Shown piece by piece: positions 33,525-39,659 of a stretch of DNA of 51,759 nt (within the stretch, counting starts at the first letter, position 1; each line of letters opens with the position of its first letter). The DNA comes from Escherichia phage vB_EcoD_Fulano1. Below the pieces are notes generated by a model. That model was given only the letters and a program-made list of their open reading frames with translations. It had not been told where the DNA came from and did not search any database. A program made the position numbers and the translations under genes. The stretch lies in sequence record OL539459.1, one strand, 5' to 3'.

Positions 33525-33622
33525 GGATTATTATCATGTGGCGTTTGTTACTTTTGCCCTTACCTGTTATGATGGCGATCTCTATTGTATATGTTGTCAT
33601 AATGAGATAAGGAGAATTTTTG

Positions 33623-34753
33623 ATGAAGCAAATCAAAATCACAGATGAACAATTTATCAATGAGCGCAAGCAGGGAAAGACATATAAGCAGATCGCTAAT
33701 GAATATGGCATGAACGTTCGCAGCATTGAGCGCCGCGCGGCACGATTAGCAAAGCAAGGTAAAGTTACAACCATCGGATCACCTGGTTTTGGTGTTACTG
33801 GAGAATCAAAGCTAATTGATAAAGATGGCAATGTGGTTATGACATGGATTAAGACAAGTAAGGACCGCGAACAGTTAGAAGCATTAATGCAGGCCGCTAT
33901 GGATGCATTTAGCGAAGAAGTTCCTCGACTTGATCCACAGCCAGAATCACAAAAGGATTATAGCGAGACGTTATCACTGTATCCGATCTTTGACATGCAC
34001 TTGGGCGCAATGGCGCATAAGCATGAATGCGGCGAGAATTGGGATACAGCAACAGCAGAGCGCGTAATGAATAATTTCATTGATTATTCCATCCAGTGCG
34101 CACCTGATAGTGAGAATGCTGTTTTGCTGATTGGCGGTGATATGCTTCACAGTGACGGACTGGAAGCGGTAACACCTGCAAGCGGTCACGTATTGGATCA
34201 AGATAGTCGATACGCAAAGCTTGTTTATGTTGCCATCCGGTCAGTGCGTCGAGCAATTACAAAGCTGTTATCAAAACACAAAAACGTCGAGATTCAGATC
34301 ATTGAAGGCAACCACGACCAAAGCGGCATGATCTGGTTGCGCGCAGCAATGGCGGCAGCATATGAGAATGAGCCACGAGTGCATGTTGATGTGTCTCCGC
34401 GAGTAGTTCATCACACACAATATGGCAAAACGTTCCTGGCATACCATCACGGGCATACTATCCGCAAACCTGAAACATTGCTAATGATGTGCGCGGCAGA
34501 CTGGCGCGAAGACTTCGGCAATTCAAAAATGATGTATGCTCACGTAGGGCACTGGCATCATCAAACAGTAACTGAAACAAGCCTGGGCATTGTTGAAGTG
34601 CATAGCACTATGGCGGCAAAAGATGCATATGCTGCGCGCGGTGGATGGCGTTCTCGTCGCCGTGCGGCTGTTATTGTTTATGATAAAGAATACGGAGAAG
34701 TAGGGCGATTTATGCATTATCCAGAAATGGCCGATCGAACTTTTAATTATTAA
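33623..34753 (+). CDS. HTH domain + calcineurin-like metallophosphoesterase
   Basis: N-terminal HTH-like KTYKQIANEYGMNVRSIERRAARL; phosphoesterase motifs DMH, GGDMLHSD, GNHD, GHWHH; ATG 33623 behind AAGGAG. Confidence 0.6.
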   Translation: MKQIKITDEQFINERKQGKTYKQIANEYGMNVRSIERRAARLAKQGKVTTIGSPGFGVTGESKLIDKDGNVVMTWIKTSKDREQLEALMQAAMDAFSEEVPRLDPQPESQKDYSETLSLYPIFDMHLGAMAHKHECGENWDTATAERVMNNFIDYSIQCAPDSENAVLLIGGDMLHSDGLEAVTPASGHVLDQDSRYAKLVYVAIRSVRRAITKLLSKHKNVEIQIIEGNHDQSGMIWLRAAMAAAYENEPRVHVDVSPRVVHHTQYGKTFLAYHHGHTIRKPETLLMMCAADWREDFGNSKMMYAHVGHWHHQTVTETSLGIVEVHSTMAAKDAYAARGGWRSRRRAAVIVYDKEYGEVGRFMHYPEMADRTFNY

Positions 34754-34781
34754 AATATCAATATAAATCATCAATTTAATT

Positions 34782-34812
34782 GGGCGTGGCATTTTGCTTC
34801 GCCCTTTTTTTA
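34782..34812 (+). terminator. intrinsic terminator before lysis cassette
   Basis: stem GGGCG/CGCCC then T8. Confidence 0.55.
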
Positions 34813-34884
34813 TTCCTTTTTGTGCGTTCAATGGTTAGGATACAATCAATTAATTGTTGACTTTTATCTACAGGAGATCTAATC

Positions 34885-35100
34885 ATGAAAGATTTTTTAA
34901 ACGCTGCAACTTCCGGCACTGGCGGCGCGTCAATCACTGGCGCGGTAACTGGTCAAACAACTATTGCAATAGCCAGCTTCGTTTTGATGGCTGCATTTGG
35001 TATGTGGGGAGCTTATCTTCGCTGGCGTGATAGTAAGGCGCTACGTGACGCGCTTGAATGCGGTGATATTAAGAAAGCTATTGAGATCAGAGGTAAATAA
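34885..35100 (+). CDS. holin
   Basis: 71 aa, hydrophobic helices, charged C-terminus, directly upstream of endolysin with ATGA overlap. Confidence 0.55.
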
Positions 35101-35588
35101 TGAGTATAAAACAAAGAGTGACCGCTGCGGCTTTTGGCGTTGCTCTTGCCCTTACTTCTCCGCTACTGGAGGAAATAGAAGGAGTAAAACATAAGCCGTA
35201 CAAAGATATTGCTGGGATATGGACGGTTTGCGCCGGAATAACTGGACCTGACGTAATACCAAGTAAAACGTACACACAGAGAGAGTGCGATGCGCTACTG
35301 GCAAAGCATATCAAGATCGCAAAGGATGAAGTTGATAAACGTGTGAAGGTTGAGATTCCTGATACAATGCGCGCGGCAATGTATTCATTCACATACAATG
35401 CTGGCACTGGTGCTTTCAGAAATTCAACCATGCTTAAGCTGATTAATAAAGGACGTTACATGGAAGCGTGCGATCAGTTATGGCGATGGACAAAATACAC
35501 CAATCCAAAAACAGGAAAGAAAGAAACGTCTAAAGGACTGCGCAACCGCCGCGCTGTGGAATTTAAATATTGCATTAAGGATCTGTAA
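35100..35588 (+). CDS. endolysin (lysozyme, probable SAR type)
   Basis: catalytic triad E-x8-D-x5-T ([16 protein letters not shown]); N-terminal hydrophobic Gly/Ala-rich segment resembles signal-anchor-release domain. Confidence 0.8.
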
Positions 35589-35590
35589 TT

Positions 35591-35989
35591 ATGAGAAAGC
35601 TATCAGCAATCGCGATCGCTGTTATTTTGTCTGGATGTTCAAGCGTTATGCCACTGACCGGATTAATCGGTAGTAAGCCGGAAATCACAGCACAGGCAGG
35701 AGCGGAGAACGTAAAGCAGACCGTTGGCGTTACCGCAAAGCAGGACACCAGCACGAAACAGGAAACTACAATAAAGGAATCTGCGGTTGATAAGGTGGAC
35801 ACTTCCAGCAAGAAGGATTTCACTACGTCAACCATTCAGGCTAACACCATCAAGGCCGATAAAATCCAGGTCGTGCAGGGGGAGCAAAGGAAGTGGTACG
35901 ATCCTATAATCTATTGCGCTGCAATTTTCAGTGGTCTTTTGACTATGCTTTACTTTTCCTACCGCAAAGATAACAAAAAGGAGGCTTAA
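35591..35989 (+). CDS. unimolecular spanin (u-spanin)
   Basis: lipoprotein signal MRKLSAIAIAVILSGC plus C-terminal transmembrane helix; architecture of the T1 gp11 u-spanin. Confidence 0.7.
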   Translation: MRKLSAIAIAVILSGCSSVMPLTGLIGSKPEITAQAGAENVKQTVGVTAKQDTSTKQETTIKESAVDKVDTSSKKDFTTSTIQANTIKADKIQVVQGEQRKWYDPIIYCAAIFSGLLTMLYFSYRKDNKKEA

Positions 35990-36004
35990 CGCCTCCTTTG
36001 TTAT
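35980..36004. terminator. bidirectional terminator after lysis cassette
   Basis: stem GGAGGC/GCCTCC, T-rich on both sides. Confidence 0.55.
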
Positions 36005-36243
36005 TCGATACGCTTTACAGTAACCAACAAAACGCCGTCCTCATCACACAAATTATGCTCTGATATGTTAAACGCTCGCATGTCAGAATGAATGAGCGTT
36101 AACATTGCGTGCATGAAGTCGCCATGTGAGATTTGAGAAGTAGCGCAAAACTTAAGAATTTCATCTATCAGTTTACTTTCCATGATTTTCATGATAACCA
36201 AGTTTAGCCTCTGCTTGTTCTCTTGCCATAATTGCATCATCAA
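36001..36243 (-). CDS. hypothetical protein
   Basis: 80 aa ORF, overlaps 3' end of HNH gene. Confidence 0.3.
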   Translation of the reverse strand: MMMQLWQENKQRLNLVIMKIMESKLIDEILKFCATSQISHGDFMHAMLTLIHSDMRAFNISEHNLCDEDGVLLVTVKRIE

Positions 36244-36646
36244 TGCTTGAAAATAATCCTAAATGAATACTCTTACCTTTATCATATATGGTTGCATGCC
36301 ATTTTTTTTCTTTCTTCCTCCAGCACACTCCAACCCTACCAGATTTATTTCTTTTTAGTAGAGATACGTTTTTGCTGTTCTCTAATCTTGATGCAAGCCT
36401 TAAATTTTCAATCCTGTTATCCAACCTATTGTGCCATATATGATCTATCTCCATTCCTTCTGGTATTTTTCCATTGTGCATTTCCCATATTATCCTATGC
36501 GCCAAAAGCAATACACCATTATACCTTATTCTTACATAGCCATTTTTATCTACACATCCAGCAACGCTTCCTGGCTTTGCTTTTCCCCTTCTGTTTCTCC
36601 ATCTCAATATTCCATTGTCATATATAAATATTTTATTCCAATCCAT
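36173..36646 (-). CDS. HNH homing endonuclease (HNH + AP2-like domain), copy 1
   Basis: motifs HRIIWEMHNG, IDHIWHNRLDNRIENLRL and AP2-like C-terminal segment. Confidence 0.75.
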   Translation of the reverse strand: MDWNKIFIYDNGILRWRNRRGKAKPGSVAGCVDKNGYVRIRYNGVLLLAHRIIWEMHNGKIPEGMEIDHIWHNRLDNRIENLRLASRLENSKNVSLLKRNKSGRVGVCWRKKEKKWHATIYDKGKSIHLGLFSSIDDAIMAREQAEAKLGYHENHGK

Positions 36647-37025
36647 ATCTTTTCCTTAGAGCTTCTATTTGTTGTCTATTAGCATTTGACGTAAACAATT
36701 CTTCATCGCTCATTTCTCCGATCCTTAAAACATCCCTTACCCATTCGTTTTGCATACCTTCCAGGCTGTAAAGTTCAAACGAGAATGGGCGATTTGCTGA
36801 TCCTTTCTTACACCAGAACTTTCCACCAACTCCATCAAGATAACCAGCGGTCATCATTCTTGAGCAAAATTCTTTTGAAACGGCAGTTGCAAACATCCTC
36901 GGCGTAAATCCTGCGGCCCTTGCGAGCCGCTCACATTCTCTATGCTGAAATATAAATTTCGCTATATGTTGACGTGTAAAATAGTCAAAGGATTCGCACC
37001 ACCTATATAGGTCAAGAATAAACAA
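36633..37025 (-). CDS. hypothetical protein
   Basis: 130 aa ORF wedged between two HNH genes. Confidence 0.4.
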   Translation of the reverse strand: MFILDLYRWCESFDYFTRQHIAKFIFQHRECERLARAAGFTPRMFATAVSKEFCSRMMTAGYLDGVGGKFWCKKGSANRPFSFELYSLEGMQNEWVRDVLRIGEMSDEELFTSNANRQQIEALRKRYGLE

Positions 37026-37028
37026 AAC

Positions 37029-37502
37029 TTATCCCCCGTGATTTTTGTGATAGCCAAGTTTTTCTTCTGCTAGTTTTCTTGCGTCTATAGCGTCACTTAT
37101 ATCTAAAAATCTCCCAAGATGTTTTATTCCATTATCTGTCTTTATCTGCGCCTTCCACTTGCCAGAGTAATTATCAAAGTAAACGCCAGTTACACCAGAT
37201 CTATTATTTTTTGATCTTGATTTGTTTTTACTATTCTCCTTGCATGTTACAAGCCTCAAGTTTTCTATCCTGTTATCGGTTCTTATGTGATTTATGTGAT
37301 CTATCTGCATTCCATCAGGAATATCTCCGTTAAACATTTCCCAAACTATCCTATGCACTCTCCTGAATCTATATCCTACATTAACCTGCAAGTATCCATC
37401 AGGTAGCATCCTACCAGCAGGCTCTCCAGCCTTGACGCGACCATAACTACGCTTCCAACGAAGTATTCCATTGTCATAATCAAAAACATCATGCCAATTC
37501 AT
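37029..37502 (-). CDS. HNH homing endonuclease, copy 2
   Basis: paralog of copy 1: NGILRW, HRIVWEMFNG, IDHINH...DNRIENLRL. Confidence 0.75.
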   Translation of the reverse strand: MNWHDVFDYDNGILRWKRSYGRVKAGEPAGRMLPDGYLQVNVGYRFRRVHRIVWEMFNGDIPDGMQIDHINHIRTDNRIENLRLVTCKENSKNKSRSKNNRSGVTGVYFDNYSGKWKAQIKTDNGIKHLGRFLDISDAIDARKLAEEKLGYHKNHGG

Positions 37503-37506
37503 AAAG

Positions 37507-39090
37507 TTACCCCAGCAATGTTGGATTTACGAAAACAACGCCATTAATCACACAAATATAATTTCTTTCTTCAAGCATCGGCAGCAGTTGCGTTTCCATA
37601 CGCTTCATTACGCCAGCCTGACCAACAAACGGCTTAACTTTTCGTGCAGCCTCATATATGGCGCGCACATTCAAGATCCCCTTGTTAGCCTTACCGTGTC
37701 GAGTGATAATCTCGATTAGTTTACCCATTTCAGCATCATCACCAGCATAGCCAGAAGCGTTTGCGGCGCTAATGTATGTTTTGCTCAACTCGCTAAACAT
37801 CAGTAGTGCTTCCTGAACGGTTTCAACCTCAATCTCTTTCGACTTTTGAGGGTATCCGCCAGGATTAAACCAATTGCGGATAGTGTGCAAAACCGAAGCA
37901 ATTCTGATCACCTGCTTATCCATTTTGCCAAGCGCGCCGCGCAGCATTGTATGAGAATACTTTCCGCCATCGGCAAGGTGCGGTTCCATCTCCTGACGAG
38001 CCATGTTAAGCACTCGCATTGCTGATTTGCTGATCTTAAGCTGGATGTTTGATTCGCTCATTATGTTATGGATCAGCTTAAAATATTGGCTTTTCAGTTC
38101 TCCATCAACAGGCTCATAAGTCGAATCACCGTTATCATCAACAAACTTTCGACGACCTAAAAATGATTCCTCACGCACAAGCAAATAACGCTCACTTACA
38201 CCGATACCGCGTGATCCTGCGTCCATGATGGCATTGATTGTTTCATCCTGGGCAATTACCGCCATGCAGCCAAGAGCTTTAAAACTCATATTGTTGTCAG
38301 CGTTTGCACGAGCTATAGAAACATGACCATGATCCCATGCTTTTAGCACAAGTTCGCTGTTTGTTTTGCGTTCGCTATTGGCATATGTCAGGCCTAAAAG
38401 GCTGTTAATACTCGTTGCCTCGTCTGAAATTACAGCAAAGTTACCCTGGCGATTGTTGATTCTTGCAAGTCCTTCAGGCGTGGTGTCTGAAACAGGGAAA
38501 ACAATGTCACACATCTTTTCCAGCTTTTCTTCAAGATCTTCTTTCTCCTGGTATAGCGATTCCATATCAGCGCCAGATCGCTCGCTTTTCATCTCTTTTG
38601 CAAGACCTGCCAACTTTGCCTGAATCTTTTTTCGTTCCTTCTTTCGCTGATCATTAATTCTTTCTACCTCAGCAACCATAGGAGCAAGTGCCAGGCTGTT
38701 AACGGCAGATTTACCAGTTGAAGGAGGCTGACTTGTAACAACGTAAAGAGCAGTTGGTTGATCCGTTCCGTGATACTCAACCGTGAAGCGTCCAAGCATT
38801 GCAGCAGACACGCAGCCGATAAAATGCATATATGCCGATGATTCAGGGAACTGAACTGATCGAGCAATGTTGCGCGCCAACTTACCAACAACATCAACAT
38901 CATTGCCAAGAGAAATTATAGGGTAGCGATCGTTTCCGTTATTAACATCATTAACCTCACCCCAAAAGCTGGACGATTGACGGTATCCGTTTGCCTGAAT
39001 GGACACGCGCACCGGAGATAATCCTTGTGCATCAGCTAATTCGATAATTTGTTTTGGTGTTAGTTTATTGGTTTCAAACGAAAAATTCAT
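37507..39090 (-). CDS. P-loop NTPase (putative replication/helicase-like ATPase)
   Basis: 527 aa; Walker A PPSTGKS, Walker B-like VISDEATS; function not resolved. Confidence 0.4.
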   Translation of the reverse strand: MNFSFETNKLTPKQIIELADAQGLSPVRVSIQANGYRQSSSFWGEVNDVNNGNDRYPIISLGNDVDVVGKLARNIARSVQFPESSAYMHFIGCVSAAMLGRFTVEYHGTDQPTALYVVTSQPPSTGKSAVNSLALAPMVAEVERINDQRKKERKKIQAKLAGLAKEMKSERSGADMESLYQEKEDLEEKLEKMCDIVFPVSDTTPEGLARINNRQGNFAVISDEATSINSLLGLTYANSERKTNSELVLKAWDHGHVSIARANADNNMSFKALGCMAVIAQDETINAIMDAGSRGIGVSERYLLVREESFLGRRKFVDDNGDSTYEPVDGELKSQYFKLIHNIMSESNIQLKISKSAMRVLNMARQEMEPHLADGGKYSHTMLRGALGKMDKQVIRIASVLHTIRNWFNPGGYPQKSKEIEVETVQEALLMFSELSKTYISAANASGYAGDDAEMGKLIEIITRHGKANKGILNVRAIYEAARKVKPFVGQAGVMKRMETQLLPMLEERNYICVINGVVFVNPTLLG

Positions 39091-39143: not shown

Positions 39144-39162
39144 ATTTAACAAAAAATGCTAT
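39144..39162 (-). promoter_or_regulatory. recurrent element ATAGCATTTTTTGTTAAAT
   Basis: overlaps stop TAG of HNH copy 3; hairpin with TATTAT loop; then RBS AAAAGGAG and ATG 39090. Confidence 0.45.
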
Positions 39163-39659
39163 ACGCCATGATTCTTGTGAAATGAGAAATCTTTCTGAGC
39201 TGTTTTTCTGGCAGTTTCTGCTTCATGTATCGACTCATACCGCCCTAAACTTACGTTTTTACCATTAATTTGAATTTGTGCCCTCCACTTTCCAGTTTGT
39301 TTGCAGAATGTAACTCCAGTCACCCCGCTTGAATTATTTATCTGAACAGACTTGTTCATATTGTTTTCAAGCCTTGTTACCAGCCTTAGATTTTCAATCC
39401 TGTTGTCTGCGCGATTGTGGTTAATGTGATCAACCTCCATGTTTGGCGGAATGTCTCCATTGTGCATAATCCAAACAATTCTATGCGCCAGGTATTTCCT
39501 GCCAAAAATACCAATAGAAATATACCCATTACCTTTTTCGCAGCCAGCTATGAAACCTATTTTATTCTTCTTTCCTGTATTGACCCTCCATATCAAATAT
39601 CCATCTTTGTATTCAAACAGCCTCAAAAGTATTTCGCTTGAAATTTTGCAGTTGCACAT
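39159..39659 (-). CDS. HNH homing endonuclease, copy 3
   Basis: HRIVWIMHNG, VDHINHNRADNRIENLRL, AP2-like tail; RBS GGAGGG. Confidence 0.75.
   Translation of the reverse strand: MCNCKISSEILLRLFEYKDGYLIWRVNTGKKNKIGFIAGCEKGNGYISIGIFGRKYLAHRIVWIMHNGDIPPNMEVDHINHNRADNRIENLRLVTRLENNMNKSVQINNSSGVTGVTFCKQTGKWRAQIQINGKNVSLGRYESIHEAETARKTAQKDFSFHKNHGV

Follow-up and report, generated by a model that had tools for sequence, protein, structure and literature searches.

The lysis genes of Escherichia phage vB_EcoD_Fulano1 (sequence record OL539459.1; the entire 51,759-nt stretch analyzed is referred to here as the window) form a T1-type cassette composed of a holin, an endolysin of the signal-anchor-release (SAR) type, and a unimolecular spanin (u-spanin), an arrangement that is already known. 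An earlier note had placed such a cassette at positions 34885-35989, and this assignment proved to be correct: in the ORF list, three tightly packed genes on the + strand encode the holin (34885-35100, 71 aa), the endolysin (35100-35588, 162 aa), and the spanin (35591-35989, 132 aa), which are by sequence comparison gene-for-gene orthologues of T1 genes 13, 12, and 11, respectively. Each gene is preceded by a Shine-Dalgarno sequence (AGGAG at 34872-76 for the holin, AGAGG at 35089-93 for the endolysin, and AAGGA at 35577-81 for the spanin). The holin stop codon overlaps the endolysin start codon in TAATG, and the spanin start codon is found 2 nt past the endolysin stop codon. Matches to the PHROG families of holin (E = 1.2e-35), endolysin (8.1e-54), and Rz-like spanin (4.5e-50), together with the Pfam match of the endolysin described below, are too strong to be due to chance. 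NCBIfam contains no model for the holin, and only sub-threshold matches (BgtA, SpmX, TraV) for the endolysin and the spanin.

The cassette stretch shares 96-98% nucleotide identity with those of the Hanrivervirus phages KarlJaspers/Bas06 (MZ501090), vojen (MN850569), and EC147 (ON185589), which differ from it by point differences only, with 100% identical holins and 93-97% identical u-spanins, and in which the three genes are annotated as holin, endolysin, and u-spanin/RzlA. Fulano1 belongs to the Drexlerviridae and is Hanrivervirus-like, i.e., a T1-like virulent coliphage with a standard cassette. Since near-identical copies have already been annotated likewise in public phage genomes, the cassette is correctly assigned but ordinary; none of its sequences is of a new type (published holins identical to its own exist, and for the endolysin and spanin the identity is about 97-98%), and its value is mainly a matter of correct annotation. 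T1-like cassettes have been published as pinholin, SAR endolysin, and u-spanin (PMC11447400, PMC13164509). R21-type SAR endolysins and T1-family u-spanins are of some applied interest for antibacterials and membrane-fusion studies.

With the gene identities, homologies, motifs, and predicted endolysin fold established in this analysis, we consider it very probable (about 0.86) that the cassette works as a T1-like holin/SAR endolysin/u-spanin system that disrupts the three layers of the envelope one after the other. By analogy with homologues and the literature, which bear on Sec export without cleavage, release by depolarization, holin hole size, and membrane fusion, the endolysin would be exported via the host Sec system and held inactive, tethered to the inner membrane by an uncleaved, weakly hydrophobic SAR segment (residues 7-23). 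The 71-aa holin would build up in the inner membrane and collapse the proton-motive force at a set time, probably by making small holes as pinholins do, though it is unrelated in sequence to EssD. Upon depolarization the SAR segment would exit the bilayer and the enzyme would refold as R21 does; because the segment is free of Cys, disulfide caging would not be involved. The refolded E27/D36/T42 muramidase would break down the peptidoglycan, and once the murein mesh is gone the u-spanin would be free to fuse both membranes and release the progeny.

The endolysin is a GH24 lysozyme-domain protein (Pfam PF00959, 1.8e-37) with the catalytic triad E27 (35178-80), D36 (35205-07), and T42 (35223-25). 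The spacing is the E-x8-D-x5-T proposed in the earlier note, and the triad is unchanged both in the 34 homologues that were aligned and in 120/120 homologues from the database. Among solved structures, the closest relatives are two SAR endolysins, R21 (PDB 3HDE, E = 8.8e-40), aligned over residues 3-159 including the SAR segment with one 6-residue gap, and RrrD of DLP12 (PDB 4ZPU, E = 7.7e-39), which is 49% identical in the catalytic domain. In a Foldseek search with the AF2 model of the endolysin (pLDDT 86), the same two structures were the top matches (TM 0.79-0.83). Sequence and predicted fold therefore place the endolysin in the R21/RrrD clade of SAR endolysins, in agreement with the earlier proposal of a probable SAR endolysin.

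The N-terminus of the endolysin begins with MSIKQR (basic residues K4 and R6) and continues with 17 uncharged residues, the putative SAR segment (residues 7-23, nt 35118-35168), which ends three residues before the catalytic Glu27. This segment is 53% Gly/Ala/Ser/Thr with a mean Kyte-Doolittle hydropathy of 1.84; it had been described earlier as hydrophobic and Gly/Ala-rich, and it is indeed hydrophobic and Ala-rich (5 Ala), whereas the single Gly does not bear out the remainder of that description. All 34 aligned homologues carry one to three basic residues followed by approximately 17-18 uncharged residues, about half of them Gly/Ala/Ser/Thr (medians: a run of 17 residues and 50%), while the sequence itself is variable. 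The pattern agrees with the way in which SAR domains have been described (PMC9239132), and T1 gp12 and TLS gp68 have already been termed predicted SAR endolysins (PMC11447400; PMC13164509). SAR behavior, i.e., an uncleaved, membrane-tethered enzyme released by depolarization, is predicted from homology and composition.

A hydrophobic core of only 17 residues would also suit a cleavable Sec signal peptide, in which case the product would be a soluble periplasmic lysozyme restrained by some means other than tethering. A possible signal-peptidase motif, A15-L16-A17, lies inside the segment and fits the -3/-1 rule; G13-x-A15 is kept in nearly all homologues, and position 17 is Ala in 79/120 homologues and a permitted small residue (A/T/S/G) in 94/120. 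The same G-x-A-x-A pattern, however, occurs in the aligned R21 segment, and SAR domains of this kind have been described as uncleaved by signal peptidase (bioRxiv 10.64898/2026.09.09.750462). The other 26 of the 120 homologues have Met, Val, or Leu at position 17, all disallowed at -1, so the motif is not conserved; the next candidate site is blocked by the conserved Pro21, and an h-region of only about 6 residues would remain if cleavage occurred at A15. A free active muramidase would moreover lyse the host before assembly and render the adjacent holin pointless. We regard a cleaved signal peptide as improbable.

Even less credit is given to a soluble cytoplasmic enzyme whose N-terminal helix is part of the fold and which would leave the cell through large, lambda-like holin holes. 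The AF2 model packs helix 14-27 onto the body of the protein with moderate confidence, and in the T1 RefSeq record the holin is given one transmembrane domain (TMD), both as such a scheme would have it. The helix packing is no argument against a SAR segment, because the full-length R21 chain in the 3HDE alignment also includes its SAR segment; the helix break in the model, at F12-G13, falls at the position aligned with the Gly run of the R21 SAR segment. Against a cytoplasmic enzyme stand the basic n-region and the uncharged 17-18-residue segment, kept across homologues despite sequence drift, and the alignment with both solved SAR endolysins through the N-terminal segment. Lysis by a related Drexlerviridae endolysin of the same layout (E26/D35/T41) is azide-sensitive, i.e., Sec-dependent (bioRxiv 10.64898/2026.09.09.750462), which also argues for export. 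We consider the cytoplasmic scheme highly improbable.

Within the SAR endolysins, the enzyme can be assigned to the R21 type ("class II"), in which the SAR segment is without Cys (bioRxiv 10.64898/2026.09.09.750462), since its own putative SAR segment contains none: C44 is the first Cys of the protein, and a Cys ahead of the catalytic Glu is found in only 5 of 120 homologues. R21 and RrrD (PDB 3HDE/3HDF and 4ZPU) share with it the GH24 fold, the E-x8-D-x5-T spacing, 45-49% identity, N-terminal basic residues, a weakly hydrophobic Cys-free segment, and four Cys at equivalent alignment positions. The hydrophobic run in R21, however, is 23 residues long as opposed to 17 here, GGG is present where the Fulano1 enzyme has one Gly, and Pro21 is a conserved feature of the Fulano1 enzyme. 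Relative to R21, 6 residues are deleted behind the SAR segment and ahead of the catalytic Glu, which brings segment and Glu next to each other, so that details of refolding may differ from those of R21. The partners differ as well: R21 and RrrD work with S21/EssD and Rz/Rz1, while the Fulano1 endolysin is accompanied by an unrelated holin and a u-spanin. P1 Lyz, a class I SAR endolysin (PDB 1XJT/1XJU), shares the SAR concept and the GH24 fold (Foldseek rank 22) and is otherwise distant (E = 1e-4, 24% identity); it is activated in a disulfide-dependent manner, and enzymes of its class carry a Cys in the SAR domain (bioRxiv 10.64898/2026.09.09.750462), whereas the Fulano1 endolysin has no Cys before residue 44.

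The holin matches phrog_2877 over its full length, and the holins annotated in KarlJaspers and vojen are 100% identical to it; a Pfam search detected nothing beyond a sub-threshold match to DUF3262. Hydropathy analysis indicates a weakly hydrophobic, Gly/Ser/Thr/Ala-rich stretch at residues 4-23, a robust TMD at residues 25-45, and a charged C-terminal tail at residues 46-71. Residues 4-45 form a single continuous uncharged run, without a charged loop to separate the two hydrophobic segments. The Hessa sums of the two segments amount to +7.0 and +0.3, compared with +6.5 and +0.2 for TMD1 and TMD2 of EssD, the S21-type pinholin of DLP12; in pinholins of this type, TMD1 is SAR-like and can be removed, while TMD2 makes the small hole. 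The holin thus resembles S21-68/EssD in its length of 71 aa, weak first segment, robust second TMD, near-equal hydropathy, basic C-terminal tail, and location just upstream of an R21-type endolysin; it differs from them in lacking detectable similarity (no BLASTP alignment with EssD at E <= 100), a charged inter-helix loop, and a dual-start motif. M1 is the only Met before M35, which leaves no evidence for a dual-start antiholin, and RNA folding around the holin start revealed no structure beyond chance (z = -0.05).

A class II pinholin has been predicted in the TLS and KanT1 papers (PMC13164509, PMC11447400), and among phages that have a SAR endolysin, most also have a pinholin gene (PMC9239132). 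Published annotations differ, however: the T1 RefSeq record of gp13 gives a single TMD and PMC11447400 gives two. Because EssD similarity and a charged loop are absent and the T1 record has a single TMD, we infer both pinhole formation and the name pinholin by analogy only.

Phage P1 pairs its SAR endolysin Lyz with the canonical holin LydA, and the Fulano1 cassette could be built likewise. A canonical holin that has one TMD (N-out, C-in) and makes large holes would suit the absence of EssD similarity, the single uncharged run from residue 4 to residue 45, and the words "single transmembrane domain" in the T1 annotation. In size and in the hydropathy of both segments the holin nevertheless closely mimics EssD, and the published predictions for TLS and KanT1, as well as the usual company of SAR endolysins, favor a pinholin. 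We consider a large-hole holin beside the SAR endolysin possible, though less likely than not.

A further reading, speculative and rather unlikely in our judgment, combines both peculiarities of the cassette: the holin could represent a new pinholin class, built either of one TMD plus a periplasmic membrane-active N-terminus or of a minimal-turn hairpin, and the unusually short SAR segment (17 residues with a conserved Pro), which adjoins the catalytic Glu, could inhibit the enzyme by holding Glu27 at the membrane surface, unlike the Glu displacement in R21. If true, the pinholin/SAR system would exist in a structurally different form in the T1-type cassette. The pinholin status of the T1-type holin and the release of a SAR segment of 17 residues are matters for the T1 family as a whole and are not specific to Fulano1.

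The last gene of the cassette, located after the endolysin and followed by a terminator, encodes a u-spanin of the T1 gp11 family, as judged from its homology and motifs; the u-spanin architecture of a lipoprotein signal together with a transmembrane helix at the C-terminus had been recognized in the earlier note. The N-terminus (MRK-LSAIAIAVI) leads into the lipobox L13-S14-G15-C16 (LSGC, nt 35627-35638, + strand, with Cys16 at 35636-38); the +2 residue is Ser (S17), and a residue other than Asp at this position is what outer-membrane sorting takes. The predicted C-terminal TMD (residues 105-124, nt 35903-35962, + strand) was located by hydropathy as the uncharged stretch PIIYCAAIFSGLLTMLYFSY, with Hessa sums of -0.64 (17-mer) and +0.88 (19-mer), and is directly followed by the basic tail RKDNKKEA. 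Between these elements is a periplasmic domain (residues 17-104) that consists of 31% Val/Ile/Thr with 2 Leu and no Cys; for u-spanins of this family, the periplasmic domain is described as made up of a short helix and at least four beta elements, in place of coiled coils (PMC6139136). The protein also has a WYDP motif. LSGC-S, WYDP, and KKEA are unchanged in 7 Drexlerviridae homologues. The protein is 97% identical to a KarlJaspers protein annotated as u-spanin, and it aligns over its full length with T1 gp11 (E = 2e-36), whose gene complements lambda Rz/Rz1 and defines the u-spanins, with the lipobox LSGC (PMC6139136). No Pfam family covers the spanin. A weak match to the Cor family phrog_1119 (E = 4.6e-5, residues 1-63) raises the thought of a Cor-like superinfection-exclusion lipoprotein instead; this match, however, is limited to the signal peptide and the N-terminal third, while the match to the Rz-like spanin family phrog_1804 extends over residues 1-131. 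Given also the identity with an experimentally validated spanin, the C-terminal TMD, and the position at the end of a lysis cassette, a Cor-like function is extremely improbable.

The cassette is delimited by terminators on both sides. Upstream, a DNA-repair exonuclease gene (33620-34753) ends at an intrinsic terminator (34782-34811, + strand) consisting of a hairpin (34782-34804; dG -14.6 kcal/mol, z = -4.19, with none of 200 shuffles equally stable) and a U7 tract (34805-34811). Hanrivervirus, Warwickvirus, and T1 all have a hairpin with a T-run at this position, with stems that differ by compensatory changes, and the T1 record has a terminator annotated at the equivalent site. The terminator that the earlier note had seen ahead of the cassette is therefore real, and it has been kept by compensatory changes out to T1. 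Downstream, a bidirectional terminator hairpin (35969-36005) is located between the cassette and the convergent genes of the - strand (dG -18.5 and z = -5.95 on the + strand; dG -18.1 and z = -5.1 on the - strand), with the spanin stop codon (35987-89) inside its loop. The terminator listing of the scan places this hairpin on the - strand, and a T1 terminator is annotated at the equivalent place, overlapping the end of gene 11.

The possible promoter suggested in the earlier note, TTGTGC-15-TACAAT, is present as a string at 34820-34846 (+ strand), but it fared poorly as a promoter. It is a weak, unsupported candidate with 8 of 12 consensus positions and a 15-nt spacer, absent from the results of a sigma-70 scan of 34400-36400. 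When the intergenic region was aligned across 8 phages, its -10 element TACAAT was found to be replaced by TGCGGT in Warwickvirus and TCGACT in T1, i.e., it is not conserved beyond close relatives. An invariant TAnnAT (TAGGAT in Fulano1) is present at 34836-34841, with a plausible -35 element only in T1 (TTGTGT-17-TAAAAT) and no good -35 element in Fulano1. The scan returned 2 promoter-like sites in 34400-36400, fewer than the 4.2 in shuffled sequences. The only + strand match, TTGACT-18-AATCAT (34857-34886), was rejected as the cassette promoter as it overlaps the holin start codon. No convincing cassette promoter was thus detected by the scan or in the eight-phage alignment.

In comparison with T1, the three genes are the same, in the same order and of nearly the same length (71/162/133 aa in T1 and 71/162/132 aa in Fulano1), with identities of 59, 64, and 47% for gp13, gp12, and gp11, respectively, and with the LSGC lipobox common to both spanins. 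A DNA-repair exonuclease and a terminator upstream and a convergent terminator downstream are also shared. In T1, however, two further genes lie between the exonuclease and the holin, gene 15 for an HNH endonuclease and the small gene 14 with an SH3 domain, both missing there in Fulano1, and the intergenic sequences differ. No homologue of T1 gp14, the SH3 accessory protein proposed in PMC13164509, was detected anywhere in the window.

Beyond the cassette, most relatives have 297 bp more than Fulano1 directly after the spanin terminator, a segment in which a 73-aa gene is located. Two HNH genes come next in Fulano1 that are missing from KarlJaspers and vojen, and no phage record spans at least 80% of 35990-37510. 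That the first of these HNH genes splits a host gene was considered and rejected, as the ORFs at this place in vojen (64 and 130 aa) are distinct from each other and overlap; the HNH gene of Fulano1 is situated between the counterparts of the 64-aa and the 130-aa ORF.

The three-gene lysis cassette that the earlier note had placed at 34885-35989 was confirmed as three contiguous, tightly packed plus-strand open reading frames with holin, endolysin and spanin profile matches in PHROG and Pfam. In the ORF map, the holin ORF (34885-35100, 71 aa) matches phrog_2877 'holin' over its full length (E = 1.2e-35), the endolysin ORF (35100-35588, 162 aa) matches PF00959 Phage_lysozyme in Pfam (1.8e-37) and phrog_7 'endolysin' (8.1e-54), and the spanin ORF (35591-35989, 132 aa) matches phrog_1804 'Rz-like spanin' (4.5e-50); at the sequence level, all three family matches are far beyond chance. 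The holin and endolysin genes overlap in TAATG, the spanin gene starts 2 nt past the end of the endolysin gene, and Shine-Dalgarno sequences read from the sequence lie 6-9 nt 5' of each ORF (AGGAG 34872-34876, AGAGG 35089-35093, AAGGA 35577-35581).

By its ORF map, the entire window corresponds to a complete T1-like genome (about 51.8 kb), and region 34700-36100 is 96-98% identical to Hanrivervirus (Drexlerviridae, Tempevirinae) phages of Escherichia/Shigella, including EC147, KarlJaspers (Bas06), vojen, egaa, and herni, whose records already label the cassette genes as holin, endolysin, and u-spanin, RzlA or Rz-like spanin. KarlJaspers and vojen have the same holin (100% identity), and their spanins are 97% and 93% identical, respectively, to that of the window. 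The T1 counterparts are ST13 (holin, 59% identity, E = 1e-29), ST12 (endolysin, 64%, 2e-81) and ST11 (spanin, 47%, 2e-36); in the T1 record the cassette has a DNA-repair exonuclease gene and a terminator as its 5' neighbours and a convergent terminator at its end. In the window only a terminator lies between the exonuclease gene and the holin gene (intergenic 34754-34884), without the HNH gene or SH3 gene found between exonuclease and holin in T1. A standalone SH3-domain protein (T1 gp14, DUF7244) has been proposed as an accessory of Drexlerviridae lysis modules (PMC13164509); tblastn of T1 gp14 detected no homologue anywhere in the window (best E = 1.6). Every feature of the cassette matches a known system, and its interpretation has already been published for T1-like phages (PMC11447400, PMC13164509), so that the result amounts to correct annotation from raw sequence.

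The catalytic triad of the endolysin given in the earlier note is correct: E27, D36 and T42 do not vary in the alignment of 34 homologues or in any of the 120 database homologues examined. Ahead of it, two basic residues precede a 17-residue uncharged run (53% Gly/Ala/Ser/Thr, with five Ala and one Gly; mean Kyte-Doolittle value 1.84) that stops three residues ahead of the catalytic Glu. The segment varies in sequence among homologues (down to 55% identity) but keeps its character (1-3 basic residues, then a median uncharged run of 17 residues with a median small-residue content of 50%), and it fits the published description of the signal-anchor-release (SAR) domain, basic residues followed by an uncharged segment rich in small residues (PMC9239132). 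The N-terminus is thus consistent with a SAR domain, as the earlier note had suspected; T1 gp12 and TLS gp68 have likewise been termed predicted SAR endolysins (PMC11447400; PMC13164509). A conventional cleaved signal peptide, for which A15-L16-A17 would satisfy the -3/-1 rule, is very improbable: 26 of the 120 homologues have Met, Val or Leu at position 17, Pro21 rules out the next candidate site, a cut following G13-x-A15, a nearly invariant motif, would reduce the hydrophobic stretch to about six residues, the same G-x-A-x-A pattern occurs in the aligned R21 segment, and SAR domains of the R21 type are described as uncleaved by signal peptidase (bioRxiv 10.64898/2026.09.09.750462).

The SAR reading also agrees with the nearest solved structures by sequence, which are two characterised SAR endolysins: R21 of phage 21 (3HDE, E = 8.8e-40), aligned over residues 3-159, SAR segment included, with one gap of 6 residues immediately ahead of the catalytic Glu, and RrrD of the E. 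coli K-12 prophage DLP12 (4ZPU, 7.7e-39), with 49% identity in the catalytic domain. An AlphaFold2 model built from the 34-homologue alignment (mean pLDDT 86, pTM 0.78; residues 1-11 below pLDDT 50) places helices at 3-11 and 14-27, interrupted at F12-G13, and Foldseek ranked 4ZPU and 3HDE first (TM 0.79-0.83, 45-46% identity), above P22 lysozyme, P1 Lyz, and T4 lysozyme. Because the first 43 residues are devoid of Cys, and only 5 of 120 homologues carry a Cys before the catalytic Glu, the enzyme is assigned from its sequence to the R21 type ('class II') and not to the disulfide-dependent P1 Lyz type, following the division made in a 2026 preprint that also reports azide-sensitive (Sec-dependent) lysis by a Drexlerviridae endolysin of the same layout, E26/D35/T41 (bioRxiv 10.64898/2026.09.09.750462). 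It differs from R21 in its shorter SAR segment, the 6-residue deletion, and its holin and spanin partners. Four further residues, C44, C63, C124, and C158, are invariant in 34/34 aligned homologues and have equivalent positions in R21, which suggests structural disulfides, given a periplasmic enzyme.

The holin has one robust transmembrane domain (TMD; residues 25-45, Hessa sum +0.3 to +0.4) and a charged C-terminal tail. Its residues 4-23 are highly conserved and rich in Gly/Ser/Thr/Ala (small residues make up 88% of the core, 7-23), with a Hessa sum of about +7. These values are almost equal to those of the two TMDs of EssD, the S21-type pinholin of DLP12 (+6.5 for the first and +0.2 for the second), which is also 71 aa long. 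Published annotations of T1-type holins disagree: the T1 RefSeq record gives gp13 one TMD, and the TLS holin is described as a class II pinholin with two (PMC11447400). No dual-start motif was found. Given this conflict, the lack of detectable similarity to EssD in pairwise comparison, and the lack of any charged residue between positions 3 and 46, we place the protein by homology in the T1 gp13 holin family and regard pinholin action as a reasonable inference.

The u-spanin (unimolecular spanin) architecture described in the earlier note was borne out. The protein begins with a lipoprotein signal, MRK-LSAIAIAVI-LSGC-S, in which Cys16 is the lipid acceptor and the +2 Ser agrees with the outer-membrane sorting rule. 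An invariant WYDP motif is followed by an uncharged stretch, residues 105-124 (PIIYCAAIFSGLLTMLYFSY), whose Hessa insertion sum ranges from -0.64 (17-mer) to +0.88 (19-mer), and then by RKDNKKEA. T1 gp11, the prototype u-spanin, which complements lambda Rz/Rz1 (PMC6139136), has exactly the same architecture, LSGC lipobox included. By tblastn the family occurs in 1073 phage records, mostly of Drexlerviridae and KP34-like Klebsiella phages; a weak match (4.6e-5) to the family of the Cor exclusion lipoprotein is confined to the protein's signal peptide and N-terminal third (residues 1-63).

The terminator noted upstream of the cassette is real: the hairpin at 34782-34804, followed by U7, has a dG of -14.6 kcal/mol (z -4.2), and eight aligned phages ranging from Hanrivervirus to T1 keep both the hairpin and the T-run, with differing stem sequences, which is strong comparative support. 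Of the possible promoter TTGTGC-15 nt-TACAAT (34820-34846), the string is present, but it gained no support as a promoter: the spacer is short, a promoter scan did not pick it out, and its TACAAT is not conserved in Warwickvirus or T1. A TAnnAT hexamer at 34836-34841 is invariant in 8/8 phages from Hanrivervirus to T1, with a good -35 only in T1 (TTGTGT, 17 nt, TAAAAT), and a TTGAC motif about 25 nt 5' of the holin ATG (34857-34861) is conserved within Tempevirinae; neither yields a convincing sigma-70 promoter in the window. At the other end, a hairpin at 35969-36005, with the spanin stop codon in its loop, has nearly the same stability on either strand (-18.5 and -18.1 kcal/mol) and coincides with an annotated T1 terminator.

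The gene identities, motifs, homologies, and endolysin fold were obtained directly; the best-supported model for the cassette is a pinholin/SAR/spanin pathway, every dynamic step of which we infer. The endolysin would be exported by Sec and tethered, inactive, in the inner membrane; holin triggering would depolarise the membrane, the SAR segment would exit the bilayer, and the muramidase would refold like R21 and degrade the murein, after which the u-spanin, anchored in both membranes, would fuse the inner and outer membranes.

Just downstream of the cassette lie two free-standing HNH_3 homing-endonuclease genes on the minus strand (36173-36646, E = 1e-21; 37029-37502, 2e-23), each with a sub-threshold AP2-domain match, and a 130-aa ORF between them (36633-37025). 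KarlJaspers and vojen have no HNH genes there. The first is shared with BEK7-type phages; the second, at this site, seems unique to this genome, because a search of phage records found none spanning at least 80% of 35990-37510. An 80-aa minus-strand ORF (36001-36243) matches a 64-aa ORF of vojen and KarlJaspers over its C-terminal ~45 aa; since its 5' part differs from theirs and overlaps the inserted HNH gene, translation probably begins at an internal Met (MKIMESK... or MESK...). Most close relatives, e.g. KarlJaspers, carry directly past the spanin terminator a 297-bp insert that has its own hairpin and a minus-strand gene for 73 aa, absent from vojen and from the window (35999/36000 junction). 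The minus-strand ORF at 39159-39659 resembles T1 gp15 (E = 6e-28) by tblastn only. Finally, about 20 GenBank MG0656xx records titled 'UNVERIFIED: Campylobacter phage A1xx', with C. jejuni from chicken as host, are classified as Hanrivervirus and show 84-97% identity to this T1-like coliphage sequence; their host label is probably wrong or derived from contamination.
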